Part shown: piece by piece, positions 5,651 to 36,952 of the stretch | How the letters are laid out: every line of letters starts with the position of its first letter | Position numbering within the stretch: the first letter of the stretch is position 1 | DNA from: a candidate division FCPU426 bacterium | Lineage (GTDB): Bacteria; Oederibacteriota; JAUXIB01 | Length of the DNA stretch: 39,826 nt | Assembly: GCA_030621225.1 (NCBI GenBank) | Contig: JAUXIB010000004.1 | Span: 1-39,826, forward strand | Direction of reading: 5' to 3' | Program-made: the position numbers and the translations under genes | The notes under the pieces: generated by a model | Seen by the model: the letters and a program-made list of their open reading frames with translations, nothing else | Databases searched by the model: none | What the model was told of the DNA's origin: nothing

Positions 5651-5956
5651 TTATTGCCTGGGTTGAACCTTGACCGAGAGTTTTAAACCAAAAGAGGTGA
5701 GTATTTTATCCAAGCTTTTCAACTCCGGATTTCCTTTGCCTGAAAATACTTTGTAGAGGCCGGCTCGCGAACAGCCAACTTCCCTTGAAAGGCGAGAGAT
5801 TCCTCCCTGTGCCTGGGCTACTTTACGTAATGCTTTGCAAAATATCCGGTAATCGCCGTCTTCCCAAATCGCTTCCAGGTAAGCTGCCGCCTCCTTGGGA
5901 TCCTTGAGTGATTCCAAAAGCCATTCGTTATAATCGCCGGACCTAACCATTTTCAT
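5651..5956 (-). CDS. Addiction-module antidote (HTH antitoxin)
   Basis: LKDPKEAAAYL..ALRKVAQAQGGISRLSREVG.SR.GLYK..S.KGNP signature. Confidence 0.9.
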   Translation of the reverse strand: MKMVRSGDYNEWLLESLKDPKEAAAYLEAIWEDGDYRIFCKALRKVAQAQGGISRLSREVGCSRAGLYKVFSGKGNPELKSLDKILTSFGLKLSVKVQPRQ

Positions 5957-6686: not shown

Positions 6687-8159
6687 ATGAAATCAATTTC
6701 CAAGTCAAAATATATCTCCGGGCTTAAGTGCCCCAAGCTGCTCTGGTACCTATACAACGCCAAGGATGAAATCCCTGCTTTCGACGCGGCGACCGAGGCC
6801 AGGTTCGCTGGCGGCCATGAAATAGGCGAATGGGCGAAGAAGCTCTACCCAGGCGGCATTGAGGTGGCCTACGATCCTGATAGTTACGAGGCGATGATCA
6901 AGCAGACGAAAGAGCTCTTGCCCCAGCGGATACCAATATTCGAGGCGACACTTGAGCATCGGGGCGCCTTCGCCCGGGCGGACGTACTTGTCCCGGTGGG
7001 CGAGGATCAGTGGGATATGATAGAGGTGAAGTCCTCTACCAAGGTGAAAGACTATCACTATGACGATATGGCGGTGCAGGCATATATCTTCAAGGGCGAA
7101 GGGCTGAAGATAAGGAAGTGCATGTTAGCGTGTGTGAATAATCAATACGTGCGTCAGGGTGATATCGATCCGGCACAACTGCTCAAGCAAGAAGAGCTGA
7201 CCGAGGCGGTTGAGGAGAAGCTTGCCGGGGTTGCGGATAAGCTCAAAGAAATGCAGGAGATCATCAAGCTGAAGAAGTGCCCGGACACTAAGATCGGCAA
7301 ACACTGCGATATGTTTCATAGCTGCCAGATGGAAGAGGTCTGCTGGGGCTTTCTGCCCAAGCATAATGTCTTTACCCTGCGGAGCATCGGGGCAAAAGCA
7401 TACGAGCTCTTTGAGCAGGGGGTGCTGGATGTCGCTGATATTCCCGAGGAATTCTCGCTTAGCGATAAGCAGCAGATCCAGTTAGCAGCGATACGCAGCG
7501 GCCAGGCCCAGGTGGACAAGCTGGGATTACAGGAGTTCTTGGGGCAGCTAAAATATCCGCTCTATTTTTTGGATTTTGAAACGGTCTGGCCGCCGCTGCC
7601 GCTGTTCGATGGGGTTCGTCCCTACCAGCAGATCCCTTTTCAGTTCTCGTTGCATGTCCGTGAGAGCGAGGGCGCTGAGCTTCGACATCATTCCTATCTG
7701 GCAGAGGGCGGGGACGATCCAAGACAGGAACTGGCTGAGAAGCTGAAACCGCTGATGGGGGATAAGGGTTCTGTACTCGCGTTCAACGCCCGGTTTGAAT
7801 GCTCCCGCTTGCAGGAACTGGGTGAAGCTTATCCCGAATACGCGGCCTGGGTGGAAACGATCCTGGCCCGGGTGGTGGATTTGATCGTGCCCTTTAGAAA
7901 ATTTCATTATTATCACGCTTGCCAACTTGGTTATGCTTCGCTCAAGAATATTCTGCCCGCTTTCGATAAAAAAGCTTACCAGGATATGGCTATTGCTGAT
8001 GGTGGTACCGCTAGTAGTGAGTACGCTCGTGTGACGTATGGTGATGATGTTGCTCAGGAAGACCGTGCCAAGGTTCGCGAAGATTTGGAGGCCTACTGCG
8101 CACTTGATACGTTGGCTATGGTACGACTGCTGGATGGTTTGCAGGAACTTGTAAAGTAG
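6687..8159 (+). CDS. DUF2779-type RecB/Cas4-like nuclease with RNase H-like C-terminal domain
   Basis: ISKSKY..GLKCPKLLW; ARADVL..IEVKSST (PD-(D/E)xK); C..C..C cluster; YFLDFET..PYQQIPFQFSLH; YCALDTLAM. Confidence 0.85.
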   Translation: MKSISKSKYISGLKCPKLLWYLYNAKDEIPAFDAATEARFAGGHEIGEWAKKLYPGGIEVAYDPDSYEAMIKQTKELLPQRIPIFEATLEHRGAFARADVLVPVGEDQWDMIEVKSSTKVKDYHYDDMAVQAYIFKGEGLKIRKCMLACVNNQYVRQGDIDPAQLLKQEELTEAVEEKLAGVADKLKEMQEIIKLKKCPDTKIGKHCDMFHSCQMEEVCWGFLPKHNVFTLRSIGAKAYELFEQGVLDVADIPEEFSLSDKQQIQLAAIRSGQAQVDKLGLQEFLGQLKYPLYFLDFETVWPPLPLFDGVRPYQQIPFQFSLHVRESEGAELRHHSYLAEGGDDPRQELAEKLKPLMGDKGSVLAFNARFECSRLQELGEAYPEYAAWVETILARVVDLIVPFRKFHYYHACQLGYASLKNILPAFDKKAYQDMAIADGGTASSEYARVTYGDDVAQEDRAKVREDLEAYCALDTLAMVRLLDGLQELVK

Positions 8160-8250: not shown

Positions 8251-8864
8251 GGGTATGATGACGAACCAAGCGGTGGAAAATATTACCGTAGGGGAGGGGC
8301 GGAGTTTACCCGACATAGCCTTGGCGACGGCGGGCGCCCTCCCCCATGCCTCGAAGAGGCATGGCCAAGAGGGGGTGATTCGCTAGGAACAGATTGCCTG
8401 CTAGTAGGGCCGTGGGCTAGGATGAGGGCGAAGATGGGAGTTGTCCATTTTTGCCTGCCCTGCGAAGCGCGCGCTTTCATCGACTGAAGTAATGAACGGG
8501 AAAGCGTGAACGAAGAAGGGTCAGGGGGCGATGTTAATATGTTATTAGGGCTCCGGACGCCGGAGGCGTCCCCGTGGTTCCCTACCGTCGGATATTATGG
8601 GAGGGAATCACCAGTAGGGGCCGCACAAAACACAAACAAGGGGTGAGGTTACGTGTCGCGGGGGAGGCATGTCTTTTTTTTGTCTAATTTTTCTTGAAGA
8701 TGTAGTTTATATCTGGCACAATTGCTTTAACAATTGAGGGGCGGTAGGGGGAGCGAGGGCCTTTTCGCTTACCAATATCTGTGGGTGCGGTCTTGGCGTA
8801 AATGTCAAATATCACTTGTCCATCGTAGTCTAGCCGAAGACGGAAGACCTGGCCCCGTCATCTT
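8251..8864. repeat. About 600-bp mosaic intergenic block duplicated at 12737-13324
   Basis: Shared GGTATGATGACG..AAAATATTACCGTAGGGGAGGG, CCATGCCTCGAAGAGGCATGG, block C and ..AATGTCAAAT..AGACCTGGCCCCGTCATCTT; copies differ by small inserts. Confidence 0.9.
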
Positions 8865-9059: not shown

Positions 9060-9170
9060 GTTTTTTTGCAAGGAAAGCATTCAGGTTCGGGGCAAGCGGA
9101 TGACGTATGTACTGCGCCTCAGGGTGGACGAAGAAGCGAAAGGGGAATAAAAAGGGGGGAGAGGAACGGT

Positions 9171-10541
9171 ATGAGCGATATCGGTCGCAACGACCCGTGC
9201 CCGTGCAACAGCGGCAAGAAATACAAAAAGTGCTGTTTGCTCAAGAAAGAGGGCGCTAGGGATGGTCTTTTCTTGTGGAAGCGGGCGGACGCGAGGGTGA
9301 TCGGCGAAGGGGTCAAGTTGTCGGAGAAGATGTTTATGGACGAAATGGCAGCCCTTCATCTCCTGTATTGGGGAAAGGAGGAGAATGGCGTCGCGTACGG
9401 CTCCGAGGAAAGCGAGCGTATGCAATTCATTGAATGGTTGGTACATGACCACCGTCAGGCCGAAGGTGGCCCGACGGCTATGGAGAATGTACTGAAGGAC
9501 AAGGGCCTGGGTGATTTGGAACGGCGGATAGCGGAGGCGAGGACGCAGGCGACGATGTCAGTTTACCAGGTAACGGGGATTTTTCCCGAGGAAGGGCTGG
9601 AACTGGAAGATATCTTTAGCCGAAAAAAAGTCATCGTAAAAGATAAGCTGGCCTCTCGCTCGGTGCAGAAAGGAGTGCTTATCCCGTGTCGAATATTCCC
9701 CGCGGGGGAACACAACTTTGTGTCGGGTGCAGTCTTCGCCATCTCTCCCGCCGAGCGACACGTGGTGGACGAGTACTTGGAGGGAGGCTACCGGAATTTC
9801 AAGAAGAAAGTTGATAAGAAGACATCCTTCGGAGATTTTCTGCGCCGTAAGGCGCACCTCTTCGGCGGCCTTCGCGTGGCAGTGGAGCGTTTTCGTGAGG
9901 AGAACCTGTTTCCCAGGGCTCTCGTAAACCATGACGGCGAGAAGCTGGAGCCCAGCAAGGCGGTCTACAGGGTCGTGGACGCAGGGAAGGTTGCGGACGA
10001 ACTCAGGGAATTGAAAGAAATGGACGAGATGGAGAAGGGCGAGAGGTTCATCTGGAACAACGCGAAGAGTAACCTTCTCCTGGGGAACATTGAGCTAAAG
10101 GAGGGGACGCTGAGCCTGGAGTGCAATTCAAAAGAGCGACTTGCCAGGGGCAAGAAGCTGTTGAAGGGGATCAGCGGCCTTAAGCATAAGGTGGGCGTGC
10201 TCGAGTCAATGAAGTCCTTGTTGGAAAGTGTCAAGGCAGGCGTGATTGCCGGCAAGAGGAAGGACGAGGAAAAAAACGATCCGCCGGAGTTGGCGGCGGT
10301 AAAAAAACGCCTGCTATTGGAGCACAAGCAGGAATACTATGAAGAAAAATGGTTAAAAAACGAGGTGCTCGCCCTCGATGGCATGATGCCGCTGTTAGCG
10401 GCCAAGGACCCAAAGATGCGGCGGCGTCTCATCGACCTTCTGCGCCAGCTGGAGTTCATGGAGGGTGGCGACAGTGACCCAGAGGGGCCCCGCTATGATT
10501 TCAATTGCCTCAGGGTGAAGCTGGGACTGAAGGAAGAGTAA
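9171..10541 (+). CDS. SEC-C motif protein with a C-terminal Xre/MbcA/ParS-like segment
   Basis: IGRNDPCPCNSGKKYKKCC directly after ATG 9171 (RBS GAGGA); C-terminal KWLKNEVLALDGMMP. Confidence 0.8.
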   Translation: MSDIGRNDPCPCNSGKKYKKCCLLKKEGARDGLFLWKRADARVIGEGVKLSEKMFMDEMAALHLLYWGKEENGVAYGSEESERMQFIEWLVHDHRQAEGGPTAMENVLKDKGLGDLERRIAEARTQATMSVYQVTGIFPEEGLELEDIFSRKKVIVKDKLASRSVQKGVLIPCRIFPAGEHNFVSGAVFAISPAERHVVDEYLEGGYRNFKKKVDKKTSFGDFLRRKAHLFGGLRVAVERFREENLFPRALVNHDGEKLEPSKAVYRVVDAGKVADELRELKEMDEMEKGERFIWNNAKSNLLLGNIELKEGTLSLECNSKERLARGKKLLKGISGLKHKVGVLESMKSLLESVKAGVIAGKRKDEEKNDPPELAAVKKRLLLEHKQEYYEEKWLKNEVLALDGMMPLLAAKDPKMRRRLIDLLRQLEFMEGGDSDPEGPRYDFNCLRVKLGLKEE

Positions 10542-11033: not shown

Positions 11034-12509
11034 ATGGAGAAGATCCCGGTTACAATAGATAAGTCTCACCTGATTACTATCGGCGAGCGTCTTTATACGG
11101 AAAGCGTAGAGTTACTGCGCGAACTGGTGAATAACGCCTATGACGCCGACGCCAGCGAGGTGAAGATAGAGATATCCGGCGGCAGGGTGGTGGTGGAAGA
11201 CGACGGCTCTGGCATGGATCTCGAGGGCCTCAGGCAGTATTTTAATATTGGTTCGACCTTCAAGCGCGAGCACCCGAAAAGCCCGCGTTTTGGCCGGGCG
11301 AGGATCGGCGAGTTTGGCATCGGCAAGTTCTCGGTGCTCTCGGCCTGCGAGCGTTTCGAGGTATTCAGCAGGCGGGGCGCTTTCGCCGGCACGATCATAT
11401 TTGATAAAAAGGATTGGAATGCTAACGCCGAAGAATGGCAATTGCCCCTGCGGCGTGAGGAGGCGGTAGTGGGGCAGGCCAATGGTTCGCGGGTGGTCTT
11501 GGAGGGCTTGCGCAAGGAATTCGACTTGGAGACAGTAGAGAGAAGGCTGATAGAGACTCTGCCGCTGAAGGCGCCGGAGTTCGCTGTCTTTCTCAACGGC
11601 AAGAAGCTTGTGCCGCGCGCCGTGAGCGGTCGGAAGATCCCTTTTCTGGACGGCACGGATTACGGCGTGGTACACGGTGAGGTGGTGATCCTGCCCGCGT
11701 CGCGGGCCACGCATGGGGAGGCAGGCATTCTGTTGCGGGTTAAAGGGGTGGCGGTGCGCAGGTTTCCCTTTGGCATGGAGCCGGATATTTTACAGCGAGT
11801 GAGTGGCGAGGTTAACGCCGACTTTTTGCCGCTGACCACCGACCGGAACGACGTGATCCGGGACAGCCCGGAGTTCGCGGCGCTGGGCAAGGTGATGGAG
11901 CGGGTGATGGTGCGAGTGAGAGGAGAACTGGATAGCCAGTATGATCGCAAGGAGAACACGCGGATAAAACGCGCTTTGAAGGAGGTGTCAGCAAAAATAG
12001 AAGCGGCCCTGACGAGAAACAGGGACTGGTGCCCACCGGGGCTCTTGCCGCTTGGTGATGGGACTGGCGGAAAAGACATGGCGGCGGTTCCGGGCAAGTC
12101 GGGAGCGAGTGCTGCCGGCGATGAGGGTAAAGCGGCGGAAGAAAAGGCGGAAAAGAAACCGGGGAAGAAAAAGAAAAGACGCCCGCGCCTGAGAAGACTG
12201 ACGCCGAGCGCGATGGTGAAGAAGATGAAGATTGGTCAGATGAACCTGGCCTTGGTGATGGACCATTATGGGTCGGAAGGACCGGAATCGTTCTTGGAGG
12301 GCGATATAATCTATATCAACCGTGATCACCCTCTCTACCAGCGGGAGGCGCGGAACCGCGAACGCCATATTATTAACATTGCCCGCCTCATCTGCCAGGA
12401 GATATCGCTGATGTCAAAGCCGAGGAACCCACGCCATGCCTACGAGCGGCAGTCGAAGCTGATGAAGGACGCCTTTATAAGCGCCAAGAAACCAGCGGAT
12501 GGGGCTTGA
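11034..12509 (+). CDS. GHKL (HATPase_c_3/MORC-like) ATPase
   Basis: ELVNNAYDA (N box), DDGSGM (G1), GEFGIGK (G2), NGSRV; S5-like GEVNADFL; C-terminal YINRDHPLY. Confidence 0.85.
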   Translation: MEKIPVTIDKSHLITIGERLYTESVELLRELVNNAYDADASEVKIEISGGRVVVEDDGSGMDLEGLRQYFNIGSTFKREHPKSPRFGRARIGEFGIGKFSVLSACERFEVFSRRGAFAGTIIFDKKDWNANAEEWQLPLRREEAVVGQANGSRVVLEGLRKEFDLETVERRLIETLPLKAPEFAVFLNGKKLVPRAVSGRKIPFLDGTDYGVVHGEVVILPASRATHGEAGILLRVKGVAVRRFPFGMEPDILQRVSGEVNADFLPLTTDRNDVIRDSPEFAALGKVMERVMVRVRGELDSQYDRKENTRIKRALKEVSAKIEAALTRNRDWCPPGLLPLGDGTGGKDMAAVPGKSGASAAGDEGKAAEEKAEKKPGKKKKRRPRLRRLTPSAMVKKMKIGQMNLALVMDHYGSEGPESFLEGDIIYINRDHPLYQREARNRERHIINIARLICQEISLMSKPRNPRHAYERQSKLMKDAFISAKKPADGA

Positions 12510-12573: not shown

Positions 12574-12701
12574 GCTAGACAAGTTAACTGGTAGTAACAA
12601 GGGTGTTCTCGGCGAGCACCTTTTGTTTTAGGCGCGTTCTGCTACATTCATTCCGAAGAGCCTTTCTGTACATTTTTCTTTTGGTAACCCCCCTATTTTT
12701 G
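12574..12701. terminator. Repeat block D containing a terminator-like hairpin (consensus AAAGGTGCTC-loop-GAGCACCTTTT)
   Basis: Copies at 12574-12701, 14800-14940, 27510-27584 and 36061-36203, each downstream of a + strand gene. Confidence 0.75.
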
Positions 12702-12736: not shown

Positions 12737-13324
12737 GGTATGATGACGGATCAAGCGGTAGAAAATATTACCGTAGGGGAGGGCCTCTGCGCCCTCCCCC
12801 ATGCCTCGAAGAGGCATGGCCAAGAGGGGGGCGAAGATGGGAGATGCCCATTTTTGCTTGCCCTTCGTAGCCCCTGCGGCTGCTTGTTAGCAGACAAGCG
12901 CAGGGGCGGAGTAGGGTCAGGAGGGCGATGATAATATGTTATTTGGGGCTCCGGACGCCGGAGGCGTCCCCGTGGTTCCCTACCGTCGGATATTATGAGA
13001 GGGAATCACCGTACGGGCAGCGCATGTCCTTCATAGCTGGCGTTTTCGTCGGTTGAAGTAATGCAGAAGAAAACGCTAACGAAGAAGGACAAAACACAAA
13101 CAAGGGGCGAGGTTACGTGTCACGGGGGAGTTATAGCTTTTTTGTCTAATTTTTCTTGAAGATATAATTTACATCTGGCACAATTGCTTTAACAATTGAG
13201 GGGCGGTGGGGTAGCGGGGGCTTTTCGCTTACCAATATCTGCGGGTGCGGTTTTGGCGTAAATGTCAAATGTCACTTGTCCGTCGTAGTCTAGCCGAAGA
13301 CGGAAGACCTGGCCCCGTCATCTT
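12737..13324. repeat. Second copy of the 8251-8864 mosaic block
   Basis: Direct alignment by eye; also shares 12918-13107 with 6438-6628. Confidence 0.9.
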
Positions 13325-14799: not shown

Positions 14800-14955
14800 G
14801 CTAGGCAAGTTGACTTGTAGTAACAAAGGTGCTCTCGGTGAGGACCTTTTATTTTAGGCGCATTCTGCCATATTCATCCCAAAGATCTTTCCTATATCTT
14901 TTTTCATCTTTTTTTCAGCAAACCCCCATTTTGGTCAGGGGGAGGTGCTACGATA
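14800..14955 (+). promoter_or_regulatory. Block D terminator followed by a CCCCATTTTGGTCAGGGGG..TGCTACGAT extended -10 module
   Basis: Same arrangement recurs at 36061-36216 (TGGTAGGAT). Confidence 0.55.
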
Positions 14956-17619: not shown

Positions 17620-17681
17620 AGGACGAAAGGGTTAAAAGGATCGAATCTCAATCGAATCTCGATTGAATGATATAATTAATA

Positions 17682-17923
17682 AGAATCCCCGGGCTAACAC
17701 CCGCGGTATTCTTGTCCCGAACGGTCGCCGGCAGGCGACCACAAGTTTTTCCTCCTTCGAATATGAAAAAGAAAAGCTTCTATTGCGTCCGCTTCCTCCT
17801 ACGCTAACCTACTTCGCACTTCGTGCTACGAAGGTCAGGAAGCTATGGAGGACAAGAAAGCGAACGATATATAACGCTTCCTCCACGAGCTTACGCTCGT
17901 GGTATTCGTGCGCAACGGAATAA
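17682..17923. mobile_element. Non-autonomous IS200/IS605-like insertion with nested palindromic repeats
   Basis: Interrupts ..ATTAATAA^ACGGTAAAT.., which is intact at 9025-9041. Subterminal hairpins CCCCGGGCTAACACCCGCGG and CCACGAGCTTACGCTCGTGG, each followed by TATTC. Confidence 0.6.
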
Positions 17924-19163: not shown

Positions 19164-20156
19164 ATGCCTACTAGTAGATATAGAAAACTATCAGACTTCA
19201 TTCGCAACCAGATGCGGATGTCGCATGTCTATCAGCCGGTAATGCTGATTGAGTTGTTGAAGCATGAGGGCAAGGCTTCGGTGCGGCAGATTGCCAAGGC
19301 GTTATCGGGGCAGGATCTCTCTCAGATTGAATACTACGAGCAAATTACCAAGAATATGGTGGGTCGGGTGCTTACTAAGAATCGGGGGATCACTGATAAG
19401 CAAGAGAACAACTACCACATAAAGGGTTTTGACCAGCTCTCGCCGGCTGAGATCAAGCAGTTGGTTGAGTTATCGATGCAGCGCTTGGATGAATACGTGG
19501 CCAAGCGAGGCAAGGACATCTGGTCGCACCGGCGCAAGTCGAGCGGCTACATATCTGGAACCAAGCGTTATGAAGTGTTAAAGAGAGCCAAGTTTTGCTG
19601 TGAACTGTGTGGCATCTCTGCTCGCAAAAAGGCGTTGGAGGTGGATCACATTGTGCCGCGAAGCAAGCAGGGATCCGATGATATCTCGAATCTTCAAGCG
19701 TTGTGTTACAGCTGTAATGCCATGAAGCAGAATCGGGACGACACCGACTTTCGTGGCATCGAAAGACGCTACAAGGAAAGAACTCCCGGCTGTGTCTTTT
19801 GCGACCTGCCCAAAAAGCGGATCATTGGCGAGAACGAACTGTGCTTAGCAATGCGTGATAAATATCCAGTGACCGAGTTACATTCGTTAGTTATTCCCAA
19901 ACGGCATGTGCGCGAATACTTTGGATTATTCCAGCCGGAGCTAAATGCAGTTAACTCCTTGTTGGTAGAACTGAAGAAAGATATCGCGAAGCGTGATGAT
20001 ACAGTGACTGGCTTTAATATTGGGGCAAACTCTGGGCCTGATGCCGGGCAGACCATTTTTCACTGTCACATCCATCTGATTCCAAGAAGGAAGGGCGATG
20101 TAAAGAATCCGCGCGGGGGAGTGAGGGGAGTGATTCCGGAGAAGCAAGGGTATTAG
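19164..20156 (+). CDS. Fusion: N-terminal helical/wHTH-like domain + HNH nuclease + HIT hydrolase
   Basis: CELCG..LEVDHIVP..NLQALC..CNAMK; then CVFC, DKYPVT..HSLVIPKRH, AGQTIFHCHIHLIPRR. Confidence 0.88.
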   Translation: MPTSRYRKLSDFIRNQMRMSHVYQPVMLIELLKHEGKASVRQIAKALSGQDLSQIEYYEQITKNMVGRVLTKNRGITDKQENNYHIKGFDQLSPAEIKQLVELSMQRLDEYVAKRGKDIWSHRRKSSGYISGTKRYEVLKRAKFCCELCGISARKKALEVDHIVPRSKQGSDDISNLQALCYSCNAMKQNRDDTDFRGIERRYKERTPGCVFCDLPKKRIIGENELCLAMRDKYPVTELHSLVIPKRHVREYFGLFQPELNAVNSLLVELKKDIAKRDDTVTGFNIGANSGPDAGQTIFHCHIHLIPRRKGDVKNPRGGVRGVIPEKQGY

Positions 20157-20484
20157 TGTAAGTAGTGTGTGATGAAAAAGTCGCAATTCTAGACGCGGTC
20201 CCTTAATTTTATACGTAGAGGAGCACCACTGCGTGCTCCCCCATGCCTCAAAGAGGCATGGCTAAGGGTGAGTTTTTTCGATTGAACACGTAGGGGCAGC
20301 CCATGCCTGTCACACCTGCGAAAGCATGTCCTCATGAAAACGGGGATAGGTGTCCAATACAAAAGGGGAGGGTGTGGGTGAAGGAAGCCAGGAGTGGGGG
20401 TGAAGAAGGGCGTGCAATAAATGTCAGAGGTGGGGCGAAGGGGACAAGTCTAAAACTGTCTATCGACTAAATTAAGGAGGCACC

Positions 20485-21081
20485 ATGGCAAGAAGCGGAA
20501 CGACAGTGCCGCAGGAGATCAAGATTGCTCGGATCAACAATGAATGGAGCATGTCGTGGAATCACATCGGCAATATCAGCACGGTCTTTTGGGGGATATT
20601 TGCGGCTCAGGTAGTGATCAACGGGGCCATTGTTTTCAAATTTGACGATCTCAATGCCACAGCTGCCAGCTTCTGGTTGCTTCTCTTCAACATACTCGTG
20701 GCCCTTCATTACCAAAGGGAGCATTGGGCCAGAATGAGAATAATTAATCATATCTGTGGACTGAGAAAGGCACTAAAGTTGCCGGATGATGAAGAAAAAT
20801 TGTTGTTTTTTAACTCCTTGAGAGTTCCCAAACCCCGTTTCGATAAGGTTCATGCCTATTTTATCTCGTTGCACCTGCTATTTATCGCCATACCGTTCTA
20901 TCTTTTTTGTTGCGAGACGGTGGCAACGGGAAAAATGGTGTACAGTTGCGCCAACCTTGCGTCTCCCAAAGGTTTGACAGCTTTTGCCATTTTTGTTGGC
21001 GCAGCTATCTGGTATGGCTATGACGATGCCAAGAGCAGGGACAATATCGCGAAGCACTGGAAAGAGCGGAAGGAGGGGTAA
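20485..21081 (+). CDS. Integral membrane protein (about 4 TM), first gene of the OLD operon
   Basis: RBS AAGGAGG; four hydrophobic stretches; ends 2 nt before the next gene. Confidence 0.7.
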   Translation: MARSGTTVPQEIKIARINNEWSMSWNHIGNISTVFWGIFAAQVVINGAIVFKFDDLNATAASFWLLLFNILVALHYQREHWARMRIINHICGLRKALKLPDDEEKLLFFNSLRVPKPRFDKVHAYFISLHLLFIAIPFYLFCCETVATGKMVYSCANLASPKGLTAFAIFVGAAIWYGYDDAKSRDNIAKHWKERKEG

Positions 21082-21083
21082 TT

Positions 21084-22553
21084 ATGAGAATATCTGCGTC
21101 TGATTTGTACTCTTTCCAAAAACCATCAAAATGCTCTCTCCGCGTCTACCTCCGGCATATAGGTGAACCACAATTAGATTCTGGTCCTTTCGAGCAGGTG
21201 CTCCAGCGTTTTGGGATAGAGCACGAAAAAAAGCATCTTGATTCTTTGGGGGACTTCGTTGATCTAAGCGAGGAATTCAATCCCGAACTCAGGACCAGGG
21301 AAGAGGTCGAGAAAAAATCTGCGGTTATCTATCAGCCAAACATGGGCGTGAATGAGACCGTTGGTGGTACTGCTTGCGAGGTAGTGGGGCGTCCCGATTA
21401 CTTCCTTCTGGATGGAGATGAGTATGTGATTCGCGATTCGAAAATATCGAGGCGAATCAATGATAGGGACCATCCTGAAATAATCAATCAACTGAATGTT
21501 TATGGCTGGTTATTCAATAAGACATTTGGCAAGCCACCTAAGCGGTTGGAAGTACACAATGGGCTAAATGAGATAGTTCCCGTCGACTATGCGGGGGATG
21601 AAAAAGTTGCAGAAAATCTCAAGAGCATTTTAACTATAAAGCTATCTGAAGAAGAGCCGTTTGAACCAGTGGGCTGGTCAAAGTGCAATGGGTGTGCGTT
21701 TAGGGATAAGTGTTGGCCTGAAGCTGAAGCGAGAAAAGATGTAGCTATGGTTGCTGATCTGGATCAGGGCATTGTTAGAGCATTGCGCGGTGAGAGTATT
21801 GTTACCGTCAGTGAGTTCGTAGATAAGTATGACGAGAATAGTTTGGCTGAATTGCAGAGACCCTGGGGACAGAGGACACAACGGGTTGGAAAGTCGGCTA
21901 CTAAAATCATGCCGCTTGCCAGGGCAATGGCTAGCGGGAAAGAAATACTGATTCAGAAACCTGACATTCCACAACATGAGAATTATGTGATGTTTGATTT
22001 AGAGGGATTGCCGCCTCACCTTGATGAGTTAGAAAAGATATACCTGTGGGGGATGCAAGTCTTTGGCGAAAAGCCATCGGATTTTATTCCGGCAACGGCA
22101 GACTTTGGCGAAGAGGGGGATGAGCAAGGGTGGAATGACTTTCTGGCTAAAGCTAAAAAGATATTTGATGAATATGGGGATATACGATTCGTTCACTGGG
22201 CCACGTATGAAAAGACCTATGTGAAGAAATACATTGAAAGATACGGGGATTCTAATGATGTTGGGGCAAAGGTGTTAGAAAGTCTGTTGGATTTACTGCC
22301 TATTGCAAAAAGCTCGATAGCTTTGCCTCTGCCGAGTTATAGTTTAAAAGTGGTAGAGAAATACAGGGATGTTGGATTCAAACGCTCGATGGCTGAATCA
22401 GATGGCGAGTGGTCAATTGCTAAGTACATCGAGGCGACGGAGACAAATGATCCCAAGAAACGAGAGGAGGTGATGAATGAGATACTGAAATATAACGAGG
22501 AGGATTTGTTGGCTACTTGGGCAGTGTTTGAATGGTTAAACAGTAAACGATAA
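21084..22553 (+). CDS. TM0106-family RecB-like nuclease with RNase_H_2-like domain
   Basis: GRPDY..IRDSKIS; KCNGCAFRDKCW; VMFDLEG..YLWG, HWATYEKT, SYSLKVVE, YNEEDLLAT. Confidence 0.85.
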   Translation: MRISASDLYSFQKPSKCSLRVYLRHIGEPQLDSGPFEQVLQRFGIEHEKKHLDSLGDFVDLSEEFNPELRTREEVEKKSAVIYQPNMGVNETVGGTACEVVGRPDYFLLDGDEYVIRDSKISRRINDRDHPEIINQLNVYGWLFNKTFGKPPKRLEVHNGLNEIVPVDYAGDEKVAENLKSILTIKLSEEEPFEPVGWSKCNGCAFRDKCWPEAEARKDVAMVADLDQGIVRALRGESIVTVSEFVDKYDENSLAELQRPWGQRTQRVGKSATKIMPLARAMASGKEILIQKPDIPQHENYVMFDLEGLPPHLDELEKIYLWGMQVFGEKPSDFIPATADFGEEGDEQGWNDFLAKAKKIFDEYGDIRFVHWATYEKTYVKKYIERYGDSNDVGAKVLESLLDLLPIAKSSIALPLPSYSLKVVEKYRDVGFKRSMAESDGEWSIAKYIEATETNDPKKREEVMNEILKYNEEDLLATWAVFEWLNSKR

Positions 22554-22563
22554 AGGGGGAATA

Positions 22564-22752
22564 ATGCCAAGTGTTAATTCAAGTGTGTTTAGTTCTATCG
22601 ATTACGATCAAGAAACAAAGACGTTGGTAATGACATTCAAACACGGGAAGGAATATCCGATTTATAACTTTCCCGAAAATGTCTATAAAGAATGGATGGC
22701 CGCTGATTCCTTGGGGAGATATTTTAATGATAATATCAAGGACAAGTACTAG
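22564..22752 (+). CDS. KTSC-domain protein
   Basis: VNSSVFSSIDYD....TL..TF..G..Y....P..VY.....ADSLGRYFN.NIK. Confidence 0.9.
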   Translation: MPSVNSSVFSSIDYDQETKTLVMTFKHGKEYPIYNFPENVYKEWMAADSLGRYFNDNIKDKY

Positions 22753-22755
22753 ACA

Positions 22756-24783
22756 ATGATTATCAAATCAATCCGCGCGAAGAATTTTCGATCCATCAAA
22801 GACGCAACGCTCATATGCGAGAATCTGTCTGTATTGGTAGGAGGGAATGGTGCAGGTAAATCTTCTTTCTTCAAAGCTATTGAAGTATTCTATAATCCTT
22901 CAACAGTAATTACTGAGGATGATTATCATAATAAAAAGTTGGACGAAGAAATAGCGATTTCAATAACGTTTACTGAATTGACAAAGTCAGAATTGGATGT
23001 GCATTCAGCGTATGTTGATGAGAAGGTGCTTACTGTTGAGTATATAGTTAAGTGGGATGGCAGAAAGGCAATAGGGAAGTATCATGGTGCCACTCTTAGA
23101 AACGGAGAATTCGCGGTTGTAAGAGAGGCTTTAGAATTATCAGACAGGGGAGCTACCGCTAAGAAGGAATATAGCTTTTTGCGGGGAAAGGAGAAATACA
23201 GCAGTCTACCCGCCTATGGCTCTAAGGGAGCGACCGAAGAAGCTCTTGTAGCGTGGGAAAAAGAACATCCGGGTGAATGTATAAGAATGCGTGATGCCGG
23301 ACAGTATTTCGGTTTTAAGGAAGTGGGGCAGGGGAAATTAGAGAAGCACACCAAATTTATTCTCATTCCTGCTGTCAGAGATGCTTCCGATGATGCGGAA
23401 GAGGGACGAGATTCATATCTATCAGAATTAATGGAATTGCTAGTAAGAAGCGCCATATCGAATCGAAAAGAGTTTCGGGATTTTAGGGAACGAGCGAAGG
23501 AAGAGTATAGTAATATAATGAACCCCGAAAACATCAAAGAACTTGATGAATTATCTTCCACTATGACCGAAACCTTGCAGACGTTTGTTAAGAACGCAGA
23601 AGTGGATCTATCGTGGCGGGACTTACCGGAGCCGACTTTTCCTTTACCACAAGCAGATATGAGACTGGTCGAGGATGACTATAAGGCTACCGTGACACGA
23701 GTTGGACATGGCCTACAACGAGCGCTTATCTTTACTATTTTTCAGCATCTTGCAATGGCACAAGAAAACAAAGTTATTGAAACCGTGGAGGCACAGGGAG
23801 AAGGCGAAGGAAACGATGAAGAGCTCGGGCAGCCAAATCTGATAATTGCAATTGAAGAGCCAGAGCTATATCAGCACCCCAGTCGCCAACGTCACTTATC
23901 AGATATTCTTTCACAAATAGCTAAAGGAACAATACCAGGTGTGGCGAAAAAAACTCAAATTCTATATAGCACACATTCCCCTTTGTTTGTGGGAATGGAT
24001 AGAATTAATCAGGTCAGACTGATCAAGAAGAGTAAGATGGATAATAGTTCGATCAAACAGACAACAGTAGCTCAGATAGACGTGGACGCGATAGCCGAAA
24101 AATTATGGGAGCTGAATGGAGCTTTGGGAGAAAAATATACAGCTGAAAGTGTGCTTGCGCGTCTTGGAACGATTATGACACCTATGATGAATGAAGGTTT
24201 CTTTGCTAATGTTATTGTGCTTGTGGAGGGCGAAGGAGACAAAGCTGTCTTGCATGGAATAGCAAAGGTTAAGAAAATAGATTTTGAGGAGCAGGGAGTA
24301 TCTGTCATTCCTTGTATGGGGAAAACCAATATTGATAGGCCATACCTAATCTTCAAGAAATTTGGAATAGATGTATTTATAATGTGGGACGGCGATTACG
24401 GCAAAGGTCAGGAAGGGGAGGGATGCGAGAAGTGCGGCAGGGGGAAAAGCAAGGCCGCAAATCCTTCCGAAAACAGGCGCATCCTTGCAATGTTAGGTCG
24501 AACGGAGCAAGATTGGCCAGATGAAGTAACTGAAGAACATGCTTGCCTAAAGGTGGATCTGGAGACAACCATAAAAGAGGAAATAGGCGAGGATGAATTT
24601 GCGAAAAGTCTTTCTGAGTGCTGTGAAGAATTTGGCATGAAGAAGAGATATGCTCTAAAAAATCCATATGTTATTGAGAGCATTGTGGGAACGAACAGAG
24701 AAAAGGGCCGAATTTGCTCTACACTTGAAAAAGTAGTTGATAAAGTTATTGCTATGAAAAACCGAAAAGATCGTGATTGTTGA
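22756..24783 (+). CDS. OLD-family ATP-dependent nuclease (ABC ATPase + TOPRIM)
   Basis: KNFRSI, Walker A GGNGAGKS, IPAVRD, VGHGLQR, Walker B IEEPELYQHP, STHSP, TOPRIM VEGEGD and WDGD. Confidence 0.9.
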   Translation: MIIKSIRAKNFRSIKDATLICENLSVLVGGNGAGKSSFFKAIEVFYNPSTVITEDDYHNKKLDEEIAISITFTELTKSELDVHSAYVDEKVLTVEYIVKWDGRKAIGKYHGATLRNGEFAVVREALELSDRGATAKKEYSFLRGKEKYSSLPAYGSKGATEEALVAWEKEHPGECIRMRDAGQYFGFKEVGQGKLEKHTKFILIPAVRDASDDAEEGRDSYLSELMELLVRSAISNRKEFRDFRERAKEEYSNIMNPENIKELDELSSTMTETLQTFVKNAEVDLSWRDLPEPTFPLPQADMRLVEDDYKATVTRVGHGLQRALIFTIFQHLAMAQENKVIETVEAQGEGEGNDEELGQPNLIIAIEEPELYQHPSRQRHLSDILSQIAKGTIPGVAKKTQILYSTHSPLFVGMDRINQVRLIKKSKMDNSSIKQTTVAQIDVDAIAEKLWELNGALGEKYTAESVLARLGTIMTPMMNEGFFANVIVLVEGEGDKAVLHGIAKVKKIDFEEQGVSVIPCMGKTNIDRPYLIFKKFGIDVFIMWDGDYGKGQEGEGCEKCGRGKSKAANPSENRRILAMLGRTEQDWPDEVTEEHACLKVDLETTIKEEIGEDEFAKSLSECCEEFGMKKRYALKNPYVIESIVGTNREKGRICSTLEKVVDKVIAMKNRKDRDC

Positions 24784-24788
24784 AATCC

Positions 24789-24873
24789 GGAGGGTTGGCC
24801 GAGTGGTCTAAGGCGGCGACTTTATAAGTCGTTGGGCAGAAGTGCTCCGGGGGTTCGAATCCCTCACCCTCGG
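24789..24873 (+). tRNA. tRNA-like gene: class II (long variable arm) Ser-type body with TAT anticodon; G1:G72 mismatch; no encoded CCA
   Basis: GGAGGGT/ACCCTCG acceptor; GCC-GAGTGGTCTAA-GGC D arm; GCGAC-TTTATAA-GTCGT anticodon arm (TAT at 24823-24825); GGGCA-GAAG-TGCTC variable arm; GGGGG-TTCGAAT-CCCTC T arm; G73. Confidence 0.85.
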
Positions 24874-25059
24874 ATCTAATGAAGGGACCGAGGTTTAGTG
24901 GGGCGAGGATCATACTTGACTTGATAAAAACATTCTTGAAGTGCCCGTTTTTGTCCGGTGCTCGTGTTAGTATAGTTCATAGTTTAGATGATTGCGTTAA
25001 GGTCTTAGTCGTCGACACAAAGAGTGGAGTAACTCATCAATCTCAGATATAATGAAGCC

Positions 25060-27451: not shown

Positions 27452-27561
27452 TGAGTCGCATCCGCGGCCCGGGCACTAAGCCGGGGGCGAGGGTCATACC
27501 TTCGATGGTCAAGTTAACTTGTAACAACAAAGGTGCTCTCGGAGAGCACCTTTTGTTTTAG
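27412..27561 (+). pseudogene. vsr: Truncated very-short-patch-repair endonuclease
   Basis: MSDVFSKKKRSEIMSRIRGPGTKP is the classic Vsr N-terminus. Homology ends near 27483 and the frame runs into repeat block D. Confidence 0.85.
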
Positions 27562-27582
27562 GCGCATTCTGCCATATTCATC

Positions 27583-27672
27583 CCTGAGCATTTTATGTTT
27601 CGCTTAAATCGGGAAGAAACCACGGCTTTGAGATGCCAATCTGGCATCTCAAAGAAAGGCAGAGGCGGGCGA
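27583..27672 (+). pseudogene. Internal fragment of an ORF6N-domain gene
   Basis: PEHFMFRLNREETTALRCQSGISKKGRGGR aligns with FPEDFMFELTKDEARVLRSHFATSKKGRGGR of 36953..37471. Confidence 0.8.
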
Positions 27673-36060: not shown

Positions 36061-36216
36061 GCTAGACAAGTTAACTTGTAGCAATAAAGGTGCTCTCGGT
36101 GAGCACCTTTTGTTTTAGGCGCATTTCGCTACATTTACCCCAAAAATCCTTTCTGTATCTTTTTTCATCTTTCTTTTGGCAAACCCCCGTTTTTGTCAGG
36201 GGGTGGTGGTAGGATA
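36061..36216 (+). terminator. Block D terminator plus extended -10 module
   Basis: AAAGGTGCTCTCGGTGAGCACCTTTT, then CCCCCGTTTTTGTCAGGGGGTGGTGGTAGGAT. Confidence 0.7.
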
Positions 36217-36723: not shown

Positions 36724-36952
36724 CCTCTGGGGTGTTAACCCCGGGGTTAGGGTCCACAGGTGAGTTATTCAAAATAGTTTTCCTGACCCCCATTTTTGCC
36801 TGCCCTTCGTAGCTCCTGCGTCTGCTTGTCAGCAGATAAGCGCAGGGGCGGAGTAGGGTCAGGCTTGTCTTGCCGTAGTCTCTGACGACGGCTGAGGGTG
36901 ATGGTAATATAGACTCAGGGGCAGGGAAGATGTTTTAGTAAAGGGGGAGAAT

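Follow-up and report, generated by a model that had tools for sequence, protein, structure and literature searches.

Organisation of the locus

The window analysed here, one 39.8-kb contig, belongs to the assembly of a candidate division FCPU426 bacterium (2.6 Mb in 266 contigs, estimated 89.6% complete). Within a defence island that spans about 4 kb to 28 kb of this window lies a string of four protein-coding genes and one tRNA gene, including a nuclease of the OLD family, and it is this string that forms the subject of the analysis. The string, and the repeat that precedes it, comprise the following features:

20485-21081, + strand: open reading frame (ORF) of a transmembrane (TM) protein, 198 aa
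21084-22553, + strand: ORF of a TM0106 RecB-like nuclease, 489 aa
22564-22752, + strand: ORF of a KTSC protein, 62 aa
22756-24783, + strand: ORF of an OLD nuclease, 675 aa
24788-24874 by ARAGORN, 24789-24873 by Rfam RF00005, + strand: tRNA gene, 49.8 bits against a gathering score of 29
20214-20266, + strand: 53-nt intergenic repeat (D2), inside the 328-nt spacer upstream of the five-unit string

The original prediction for this DNA, made by a model from the letters alone, had described five same-strand units with tiny gaps and had assigned them to a TM protein, a TM0106 RecB-like nuclease, a KTSC protein, an OLD nuclease and a tRNA-like RNA. Both the layout (gaps of 2, 10, 3 and 4-5 nt along positions 20485-24874) and the family assignments were borne out by the ORF, profile and ARAGORN/Rfam calls. 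Its statement that no helicase or reverse transcriptase (RT) is present likewise holds, as neither family was found near the OLD gene in the family scans of the window proteins. Shine-Dalgarno motifs precede the TM (AAGGAGG), TM0106 and KTSC genes, with none before the OLD gene, the start of which is situated 3 nt past the KTSC stop. Consensus scanning revealed no excess of promoter-like (9 sites against 8.9 expected) or terminator-like sites (2 against 3.8 expected) inside the string, which is probably co-transcribed, and the 328-nt spacer holding D2 is where its promoter would have to be. The other cassettes of the island are just as compact, and close spacing alone is therefore no proof of a functional unit.

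The OLD nuclease and its conserved KTSC partner

The 675-aa OLD protein combines an N-terminal ABC-type ATPase with Walker A and B motifs (AAA_15, 8.8e-41 over residues 1-412) and a C-terminal OLD-like TOPRIM domain with the conserved Glu and DxD motif (PF20469, 1.7e-18 over residues 482-547). All of the residues that are invariant in 26 homologs are kept, including K35 of the Walker A motif, E367/E368, E491/E493/D495 and D545/D547, and judging by these residues the nuclease is catalytically intact. When the PADLOC comparison called for by the original prediction was run, the best model was Old (5.3e-51), followed by AriA, which matches only the ATPase part (residues 1-412), and GajA, and the arrangement is neither that of Gabija nor that of PARIS. 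The nearest, and sole, solved sequence relative found is the Class 1 OLD of Thermus scotoductus (6p74, 1.2e-21), with the similarity limited to residues 356-581. Relatives of the protein number in the thousands, the best being only about 50% identical, and within its own phylum OLD matches occur in two other genomes of 99, at 32-34% identity. In a tree of 73 OLD proteins the window protein is placed on a long branch without a supported sister.

The 62-aa protein encoded immediately upstream matches the KTSC profile over its entire length (PF13619, 1.4e-19; 70 bits against a gathering threshold of 25; profile positions 1-58 of 58), and its solved relatives include 7x8c, 4rgi and the C-terminal domain of the HerA protein 8wiv. 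The neighbourhoods of OLD homologs were compared in 80 loci of species-representative genomes (36-47% identity, with flanks of at most 6 kb to either side), of which 77 include the OLD N-terminus and upstream DNA and can be assessed for an upstream KTSC gene. While tblastn with the window protein identified KTSC in 30 of the 80 loci, the KTSC profile, applied to six-frame translations, placed a KTSC gene on the same strand directly upstream of OLD in 45/77 assessable loci (39 at E<=1e-27 and six weaker or partial), at a distance of less than 150 nt and mostly of 3-18 nt. One further locus has KTSC just downstream of OLD and another has it in divergent orientation. The linked loci carry sixteen phylum labels, both bacterial and archaeal. 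On the OLD tree, from which OLD ORFs that were under 600 aa or uncalled were left out, the KTSC label changes 12 times, compared to a mean of 23.1 changes in shuffled labels (0/500 shuffles as low), and at least six of the 12 changes are forced by well-supported branches. This pattern argues that KTSC-OLD is an old, much-transferred two-gene module from which KTSC has repeatedly been lost. KTSC is a true conserved partner of OLD.

The original prediction had proposed conserved neighbours of OLD homologs as a check on its own claims, and on this count the KTSC gene is conserved, whereas the TM0106 and tRNA genes are not (0/80 loci each), with even the nearest known homologs only about 50% identical to the window OLD. 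A candidate KTSC-OLD fusion in locus L044 was rejected, as only the C-terminal part of KTSC, a remnant, is in frame with OLD. Structure prediction for an OLD and KTSC complex returned a score of 0.00, which gives no verdict and was used neither for nor against the pairing.

Clustering of the proteins around OLD by BLAST distinguished about ten loci with a protein of about 990 aa after OLD, five with a 470-590-aa protein before KTSC and eight with a protein of about 1000-1200 aa nearby. Three representative proteins were scanned, and were found to be a DUF1156 methyltransferase, an RmuC protein and a SNF2 helicase with a NOV_C domain. We take such neighbourhoods, provisionally, to recall DISARM class 1. 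In two haloarchaeal loci a HerA ATPase precedes KTSC.

KTSC domains also occur in longer proteins. Among the 120 longer proteins listed for the KTSC profile (P0249-P0368), 42 belong to the PIN-like family PF18476, ten include TIR, eight HerA, four Schlafen/AlbA_2, four DnaJ and three Ham1-like domains, and one each RmuC, SNF2 and PF13366. Two more incorporate families that we take to be alanyl- and tyrosyl-tRNA synthetase. OLD domains are found in none of these 120 proteins. PADLOC-DB 2.0.0 includes no KTSC model, the sole match being weak and inside a methylase model. The fusions to many effectors argue that KTSC acts like a small adaptor domain of defence systems, and the range of its domain partners gives it the look of an adaptor used across conflict systems in general. 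In PMC7824862 it is called an RNA-binding domain of lysyl-tRNA synthetase, while a remark in PMC9503650 mentions, as an unpublished observation, a HerA protein coupled to a DNA-binding KTSC protein and an endoDNase. The latter remark is the nearest that full-text literature searches came to the KTSC-OLD pairing, of which no description was found in the texts returned.

The TM protein and the TM0106 nuclease

The two genes at the 5' end of the string look like real genes. The 198-aa TM protein has about three hydrophobic segments by a crude hydropathy count, and no family was found for it in Pfam, PADLOC or NCBIfam. Only seven relatives could be identified among 1.84 billion representatives, one of them 59% identical over the full length and the others at E 7e-7 or weaker, and its Atlas matches are unnamed membrane-protein clusters only. 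The TM0106 protein matches TIGR03491 over residues 5-485 (133.9 bits against a cut-off of 97.45) and incorporates PDDEXK_1 and Cas_Cas4 domains (an N-terminal Cas4-like PD-(D/E)XK nuclease with four Cys) as well as a C-terminal RNase_H_2 domain. The residues invariant in 20 TM0106 homologs, including C17, D105, D118, K120, C201, C204, C210, D305 and E307, are all kept.

The proposal that the TM protein and the RecB-like nuclease form part of a system with OLD was not supported, as tblastn placed homologs of neither beside OLD (0/80 loci each). The window TM0106 query likewise found no homolog in the three OLD-bearing genomes searched with it. Homologs of TM0106 (45-57% identity) occur in unrelated contexts in 12 of the 99 genomes of the phylum, two of 301 genomes of another phylum and one viral contig. 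Fifteen other TM0106 loci have no sequence-similar TM neighbour and no adjoining OLD gene; at one of them TM0106 is preceded by an unrelated membrane-like ORF of 195 aa (BLASTP E 7.3), and at another it is followed by a 3-TM ORF. A pairing of TM with TM0106 was also considered, and was rejected on the basis of these fifteen loci. As far as the loci compared can tell, TM and TM0106 are local, independent neighbours and not part of the conserved OLD module.

Structure of the tRNA

As drawn by ARAGORN, the acceptor stem of the tRNA contains a G·G mismatch, the D stem has 3 bp and closes an 11-nt loop, and the T stem has 5 bp; the anticodon, UAU, is presented by a loop of the standard 7 nt, and the variable arm is long (5 bp with a 4-nt loop). 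The Rfam alignment gives a 7/5 acceptor/T arrangement with G1·G72 flagged as non-canonical, a G73 discriminator and an ordinary tRNA D arm. A free-energy fold lengthens the acceptor helix with the flanks (ATCCG with CGGAT), leaving one bulged G, and offers a 4-bp D stem with a tetraloop. The D arms of the host tRNA-Ser(GGA) and tRNA-Ser(CGA) have the same GAGTGGTC core, and a similar pairing of 3-4 bp is possible in them. No CCA is encoded in the window tRNA, compared to 24/26 ARAGORN tRNA calls in the genome that do encode it. The other call without CCA, a 95-nt 'tRNA-Gln(ttg)' on contig C136 (4262-4356), aligns with no other tRNA of the genome and is probably a false call. Apart from the tRNA, the window has no Rfam hits.

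The best matches of the tRNA in relatives from the phylum are all tRNA-Ser, as is its sole annotated phage match, and its acceptor and T arm are identical to those of a same-phylum tRNA-Ser(UGA) save for position 72. Its Rfam score of 49.8 bits is below those of eight of the nine tRNA-Ser genes of the relatives (54-62.5 bits), the ninth scoring 32.9. We take the serine identity set to comprise a long variable arm, G73, G2:C71, A3:U70 and C11:G24. The body of the tRNA is that of a tRNA-Ser in its long variable arm, G73, G2:C71 and A3:U70, and departs from it in the UAU anticodon and in the unpaired G1·G72. The typical tRNA-Ile(UAU) belongs to class I, its variable loop being short and its discriminator A73; the window tRNA has a long variable arm and G73 instead. 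The host encodes TilS (174.6 bits) and a tRNA(CAU) on contig C142 that is read as tRNA-Ile2, so that AUA is decoded in the ordinary way and a UAU decoder is not needed. AUA is a common codon in this host, making up 15.8 per 1000 codons and 29% of the Ile codons. Contigs from one DNA sequencing run gave a single exact match of 210 nt, apart from a few short pieces that differ, and these have no bearing on expression or on the OLD-tRNA junction.

Context and origin of the tRNA

The claim that the tRNA is a component of an OLD system found no support in the OLD loci, in none of which a same-strand tRNA occurs within 400 nt downstream of OLD (0/80). Some tRNA call, of many identities, is present within about 6 kb in 14/80 loci, and in four loci a tRNA lies within 450 nt of the cassette. 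One of these loci (L016), on a Chloroflexota chromosome, has a lone OLD gene between a full tRNA-Val(CAC) without CCA and a perfect 60-nt repeat of its 3' part with CCA (5787-5861 and 8388-8461), with no integrase gene in the stretch of about 2.5 kb between them. This arrangement is a mark of insertion at a tRNA gene; the locus looks like a mini-island inserted in a tRNA gene and is a precedent for OLD cassettes at tRNA sites. The damage to the window tRNA, with its missing CCA and break at position 72, resembles that in the Chloroflexota locus, and we infer an integration-scar origin. On the strength of these comparisons, the tRNA is probably a foreign or scarred passenger derived from a tRNA-Ser.

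Pattern searches for a Ser-type tRNA(UAU) gave no match in the viral contigs and 96 matches in metagenome contigs, of which none of the 80 listed is a tRNA(UAU) according to ARAGORN, and these are therefore chance matches. With a looser pattern, five matches were obtained in the 99 phylum genomes, compared to six in a reversed control, and the four outside the window are not tRNAs. In 401 Acidobacteriota genomes, 21 matches to a loose pattern include five ARAGORN tRNA(UAU) genes with long variable arms, two in tRNA arrays and three, identical to one another, in copies of a 2.5-kb repeat, and none of the five is beside OLD. Long-variable-arm tRNA(UAU) sequences thus exist in mobile contexts, not beside OLD.

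The three repeat copies (L241, L242 and L243) are at least 99.9% identical and occur in one Acidobacteriota genome (G420), and in each of them a class II tRNA(UAU) call (7/5, G73, CCA encoded) lies antisense inside a 649-aa ORF. An overlap of tRNAs termed allo-tRNA(UAU) with transposons is reported in a section of PMC5389517, and the G420 repeats echo it. The other two genes (L228, 1469-1561; L230, 1156-1251) are situated in arrays of 6-9 tRNA genes, just after tRNA-Ile(GAU); in both, the D arm is of class I and a long variable arm is inserted.

Comparison with known systems

OLD nucleases are sorted by their partners, with none in Class 1, a helicase in Gabija, a retron, or a split into two proteins in PARIS. 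Like the Class 1 enzymes P2 Old, Thermus scotoductus OLD (6p74) and Vibrio cholerae OLD, the window OLD has no UvrD-like helicase or RT alongside, its neighbours being KTSC, the tRNA and a C5 methylase. The sections on Class 1 in PMC10568477 and PMC12392090 describe these enzymes as single genes without partners, away from defence genes and islands. The window OLD is neither partnerless nor remote from defence genes in the sense of the former source, and its clade differs from Class 1 in having a KTSC partner (45/77 loci) and in its occurrence in defence islands. With Gabija (Class 2, GajA/GajB), the retron-associated OLD proteins (Class 3) and PARIS (Class 4, AriA/AriB) it shares an OLD-type ATPase and TOPRIM with a partner, but the partner is a 62-aa KTSC protein rather than a UvrD-like helicase or an RT with a non-coding RNA (ncRNA). 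Where Gabija has the UvrD/PcrA-like helicase GajB immediately downstream, the window has the tRNA and then a C5 methylase; no RT domain, and no Rfam hit that could stand for an msr/msd ncRNA, accompanies the OLD gene as in retrons; and the ATPase and TOPRIM, which are on the separate proteins AriA and AriB in PARIS, are both in one 675-aa ORF. The suggestion of a new OLD context thus stands in so far as the locus differs from Gabija, retrons and PARIS alike and has a conserved partner in KTSC, and falls where it extends to a five-part system. HerA-KTSC and other KTSC-fused defence proteins include domains matched by the same KTSC profile, with the difference that the window KTSC is free-standing beside OLD.

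Of these groups Class 1 is understood least, and the question whether its enzymes act alone is still raised in reviews (PMC10568477). The pairing reported here means that a large, horizontally spread OLD clade, which would otherwise be filed as Class 1, has a conserved partner of 60-70 aa. This partner provides a handle on how such OLD enzymes are triggered or regulated, and a defence role is thereby assigned to KTSC, which is fused to many other effectors and had no function attached to it.

The allo-tRNAs of Mukai et al. (PMC5389517) are described as Ser-type tRNAs whose acceptor/T branch is 8/4 or 9/3 and whose D arm resembles that of tRNA-Sec. UAU is their commonest anticodon, and they often lie near toxin-antitoxin systems and often have stem defects. 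Members with Ser identity put Ser at codons that do not specify it and are lethal to E. coli, while the six allo-tRNA(UAU) species tested were inactive in translation (PMC5389517). The window tRNA resembles allo-tRNA(UAU) in its long variable arm, Ser-type G73 (G73 or U73 being typical) with a non-Ser anticodon, UAU, irregular pairing and conflict-gene address. It differs in its branch, with a 5-bp T stem and an acceptor stem of 7 bp, or 8 bp with a mismatch (7/5 or 8/5), and in its ordinary tRNA-Ser D arm, which lacks the long stem and tetraloop of tRNA-Sec. As it departs from the group in both structural respects, it is not filed as an allo-tRNA. As a single case, this Ser-type tRNA(UAU) makes a canonical-shaped addition to the unexplained link between serine-like tRNA(UAU) species and conflict loci.

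Interpretation of the string

The explanation that we favour, with moderate confidence, is that the string consists of separate units juxtaposed in a defence island, with KTSC and OLD as the functional core and the tRNA as a passenger. KTSC and OLD probably form a two-gene anti-phage module. If P2 Old, Thermus OLD, Vibrio OLD and GajA are taken as models, the OLD protein, an ABC-type ATPase fused to a TOPRIM nuclease, would most likely nick or degrade invading or replicating phage DNA. KTSC, which appears to be translationally coupled to OLD, could bind nucleic acid and act as an adaptor or regulator, either sensing the invader or gating the nuclease, as characterised relatives and the spectrum of KTSC fusions suggest. 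The tRNA would derive from a tRNA-Ser whose anticodon has changed and whose acceptor end is damaged; most likely it was acquired horizontally, or bears the scar of recombination at a hot spot for insertion into tRNA genes. Should it be transcribed, RNase P would probably release it from the OLD transcript, and OLD function probably does not depend on it.

Several observations weigh against this explanation. All stems of the tRNA are paired except at 1:72, and U8, G18-G19, U33, the purine at position 37 and the T-loop are intact, a degree of order not expected of a decaying pseudogene. No repeat of the tRNA 3' half was found in the window or the assembly, so that no att pair was identified, and no direct repeat involves the tRNA, and the gap of 4-5 nt to the OLD stop is hard to derive from ordinary tRNA integration at the 3' end. 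KTSC is missing at 32/77 assessable loci, so OLD can work without it, and we know of no biochemical role for KTSC. No OLD homolog is closer than about 50% identity, which puts conservation of the tRNA in near relatives out of reach. Finally, with UAU the commonest anticodon among the allo-tRNAs near toxin-antitoxin systems, as the cited portions of PMC5389517 have it, the tRNA may have a function tied to conflict.

The original prediction went further and joined all five units into one system, with the co-transcribed tRNA-like RNA as a decoy, inhibitor, replacement tRNA or effector, KTSC as an RNA adaptor and the RecB-like nuclease as a DNA-end sensor. The gaps of 2-10 nt and the lack of a promoter or terminator excess inside the string are consistent with such a unit, and a tie to tRNA is suggested by the naming of KTSC after lysyl-tRNA synthetase and by the fusions, in 2 of the 120 listed proteins, to what we take to be aminoacyl-tRNA synthetase families. 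That a TOPRIM nuclease can act on tRNA is known from AriB, which cleaves it according to the relevant parts of PMC12409363 and PMC11464382. Against these points, TM0106, TM and an adjacent same-strand tRNA are each found at 0/80 OLD loci, no similar tRNA occurs in the viral contigs, the listed metagenome matches or the 99 phylum genomes, and the KTSC-OLD pair is conserved without any tRNA nearby, which makes a five-part system highly improbable. Analogy with AriB would also permit another proposal, in which KTSC is a tRNA-binding adaptor, as its synthetase fusions hint, that aims the OLD TOPRIM at tRNA, and the co-transcribed tRNA(UAU) is a dedicated RNA component of this one locus, either an uncleavable decoy or immunity RNA restraining the nuclease or a mistranslating effector released on infection. 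We consider this very unlikely; if true, no earlier defence system would be known to supply a tRNA-like subunit of its own, and the finding would tie the association of allo-tRNA(UAU) with toxin-antitoxin systems to immunity.

Two further proposals were considered, both of them unlikely. In one, the tRNA is a functional tRNA(UAU) that accepts Ser, analogous to allo-tRNA(UAU) but canonical in shape, and belongs to island or conflict biology independently of OLD. It would either act as a conditional toxin or addiction element, by having AUA read as Ser, or serve as a regulatory RNA with no part in translation. All features of the serine identity set as we take it, C11:G24 included, are present, and the remaining stems and tertiary nucleotides are intact, but AUA is common in the host, so that constitutive insertion of Ser would harm it, the G1·G72 mismatch should weaken charging and use by EF-Tu, and the single occurrence offers no conservation to show. 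The allo-tRNA precedent, as far as the cited portions of PMC5389517 describe it, cuts both ways, with the killing of E. coli by Ser-identity species and the abundance of the UAU group near toxin-antitoxin systems set against the translational inactivity of the six UAU species tested. In the other proposal, TM and the TM0106 nuclease were recruited to the KTSC-OLD core to give a lineage-specific four-protein system without the tRNA. The tight packing with Shine-Dalgarno motifs, the one upstream spacer for all four genes and the frequent gain of modules by defence systems would fit such a recruitment; yet no second instance occurs among the loci examined, TM and TM0106 both occur elsewhere without OLD, and the rest of the island is equally compact.

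The surrounding defence island

Family scans of the window proteins gave the following gene content for the island:

Island gene content (1): Fic; DUF2779 Cas4-like nuclease; SEC-C protein; GHKL ATPase; Schlafen/AlbA_2 protein
Island gene content (2): N4/N6 methylase and MvaI/BcnI endonuclease; two HNH_2 proteins; HNH-HIT fusion
Island gene content (3): the string under study; C5 methylase and HNH endonuclease

The window encodes two type II restriction-modification (RM) pairs and three HNH proteins, with no integrase among the 29 ORFs scanned. The G+C content is 40-49% over 13-29 kb, compared to 50-59% in most 1-kb windows of the flanks. Synteny with a genome of the same family (G001) is limited to the first 2.2 kb and the DUF2779 gene, and with so little matching no empty-site comparison is possible.

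Several repeats are scattered through the window. The D2 repeat of the upstream spacer is also present at 12772-12824, with a partial copy at 8334-8369. A 75-nt repeat (85-100% identity), consisting of a short palindrome, a GC-rich hairpin and a T run, occurs just 3' of defence cassettes at 12580-12654, 14806-14880, 27510-27584 and 36067-36141. Within the assembly it is confined to the contig of the window, and it may be a shared terminator or cassette-boundary element. Further short intergenic repeats are located at 30-72, 214-256, 8288-8345, 12856-12917, 17678-17720, 17794-17856 and 36798-36860. Of the short intergenic repeats as a group, D2 among them, several match many G001 contigs at 83-97% identity; scattered between the island cassettes, they look like REP- or MITE-like elements of the lineage. 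Three consecutive same-strand genes for proteins of about 490 aa (6687-8159, 9066-10541 and 11034-12509) encode the DUF2779/Cas4-like protein, a protein with a SEC-C motif and the GHKL (HATPase_c_3) ATPase, and may make up a defence cassette of their own. At the DNA level, the DUF2779 gene shares 73% identity with a G001 gene. The gene that immediately precedes the string (19164-20156) encodes a 330-aa protein in which an HNH endonuclease domain is combined with a HIT nucleotide hydrolase domain.

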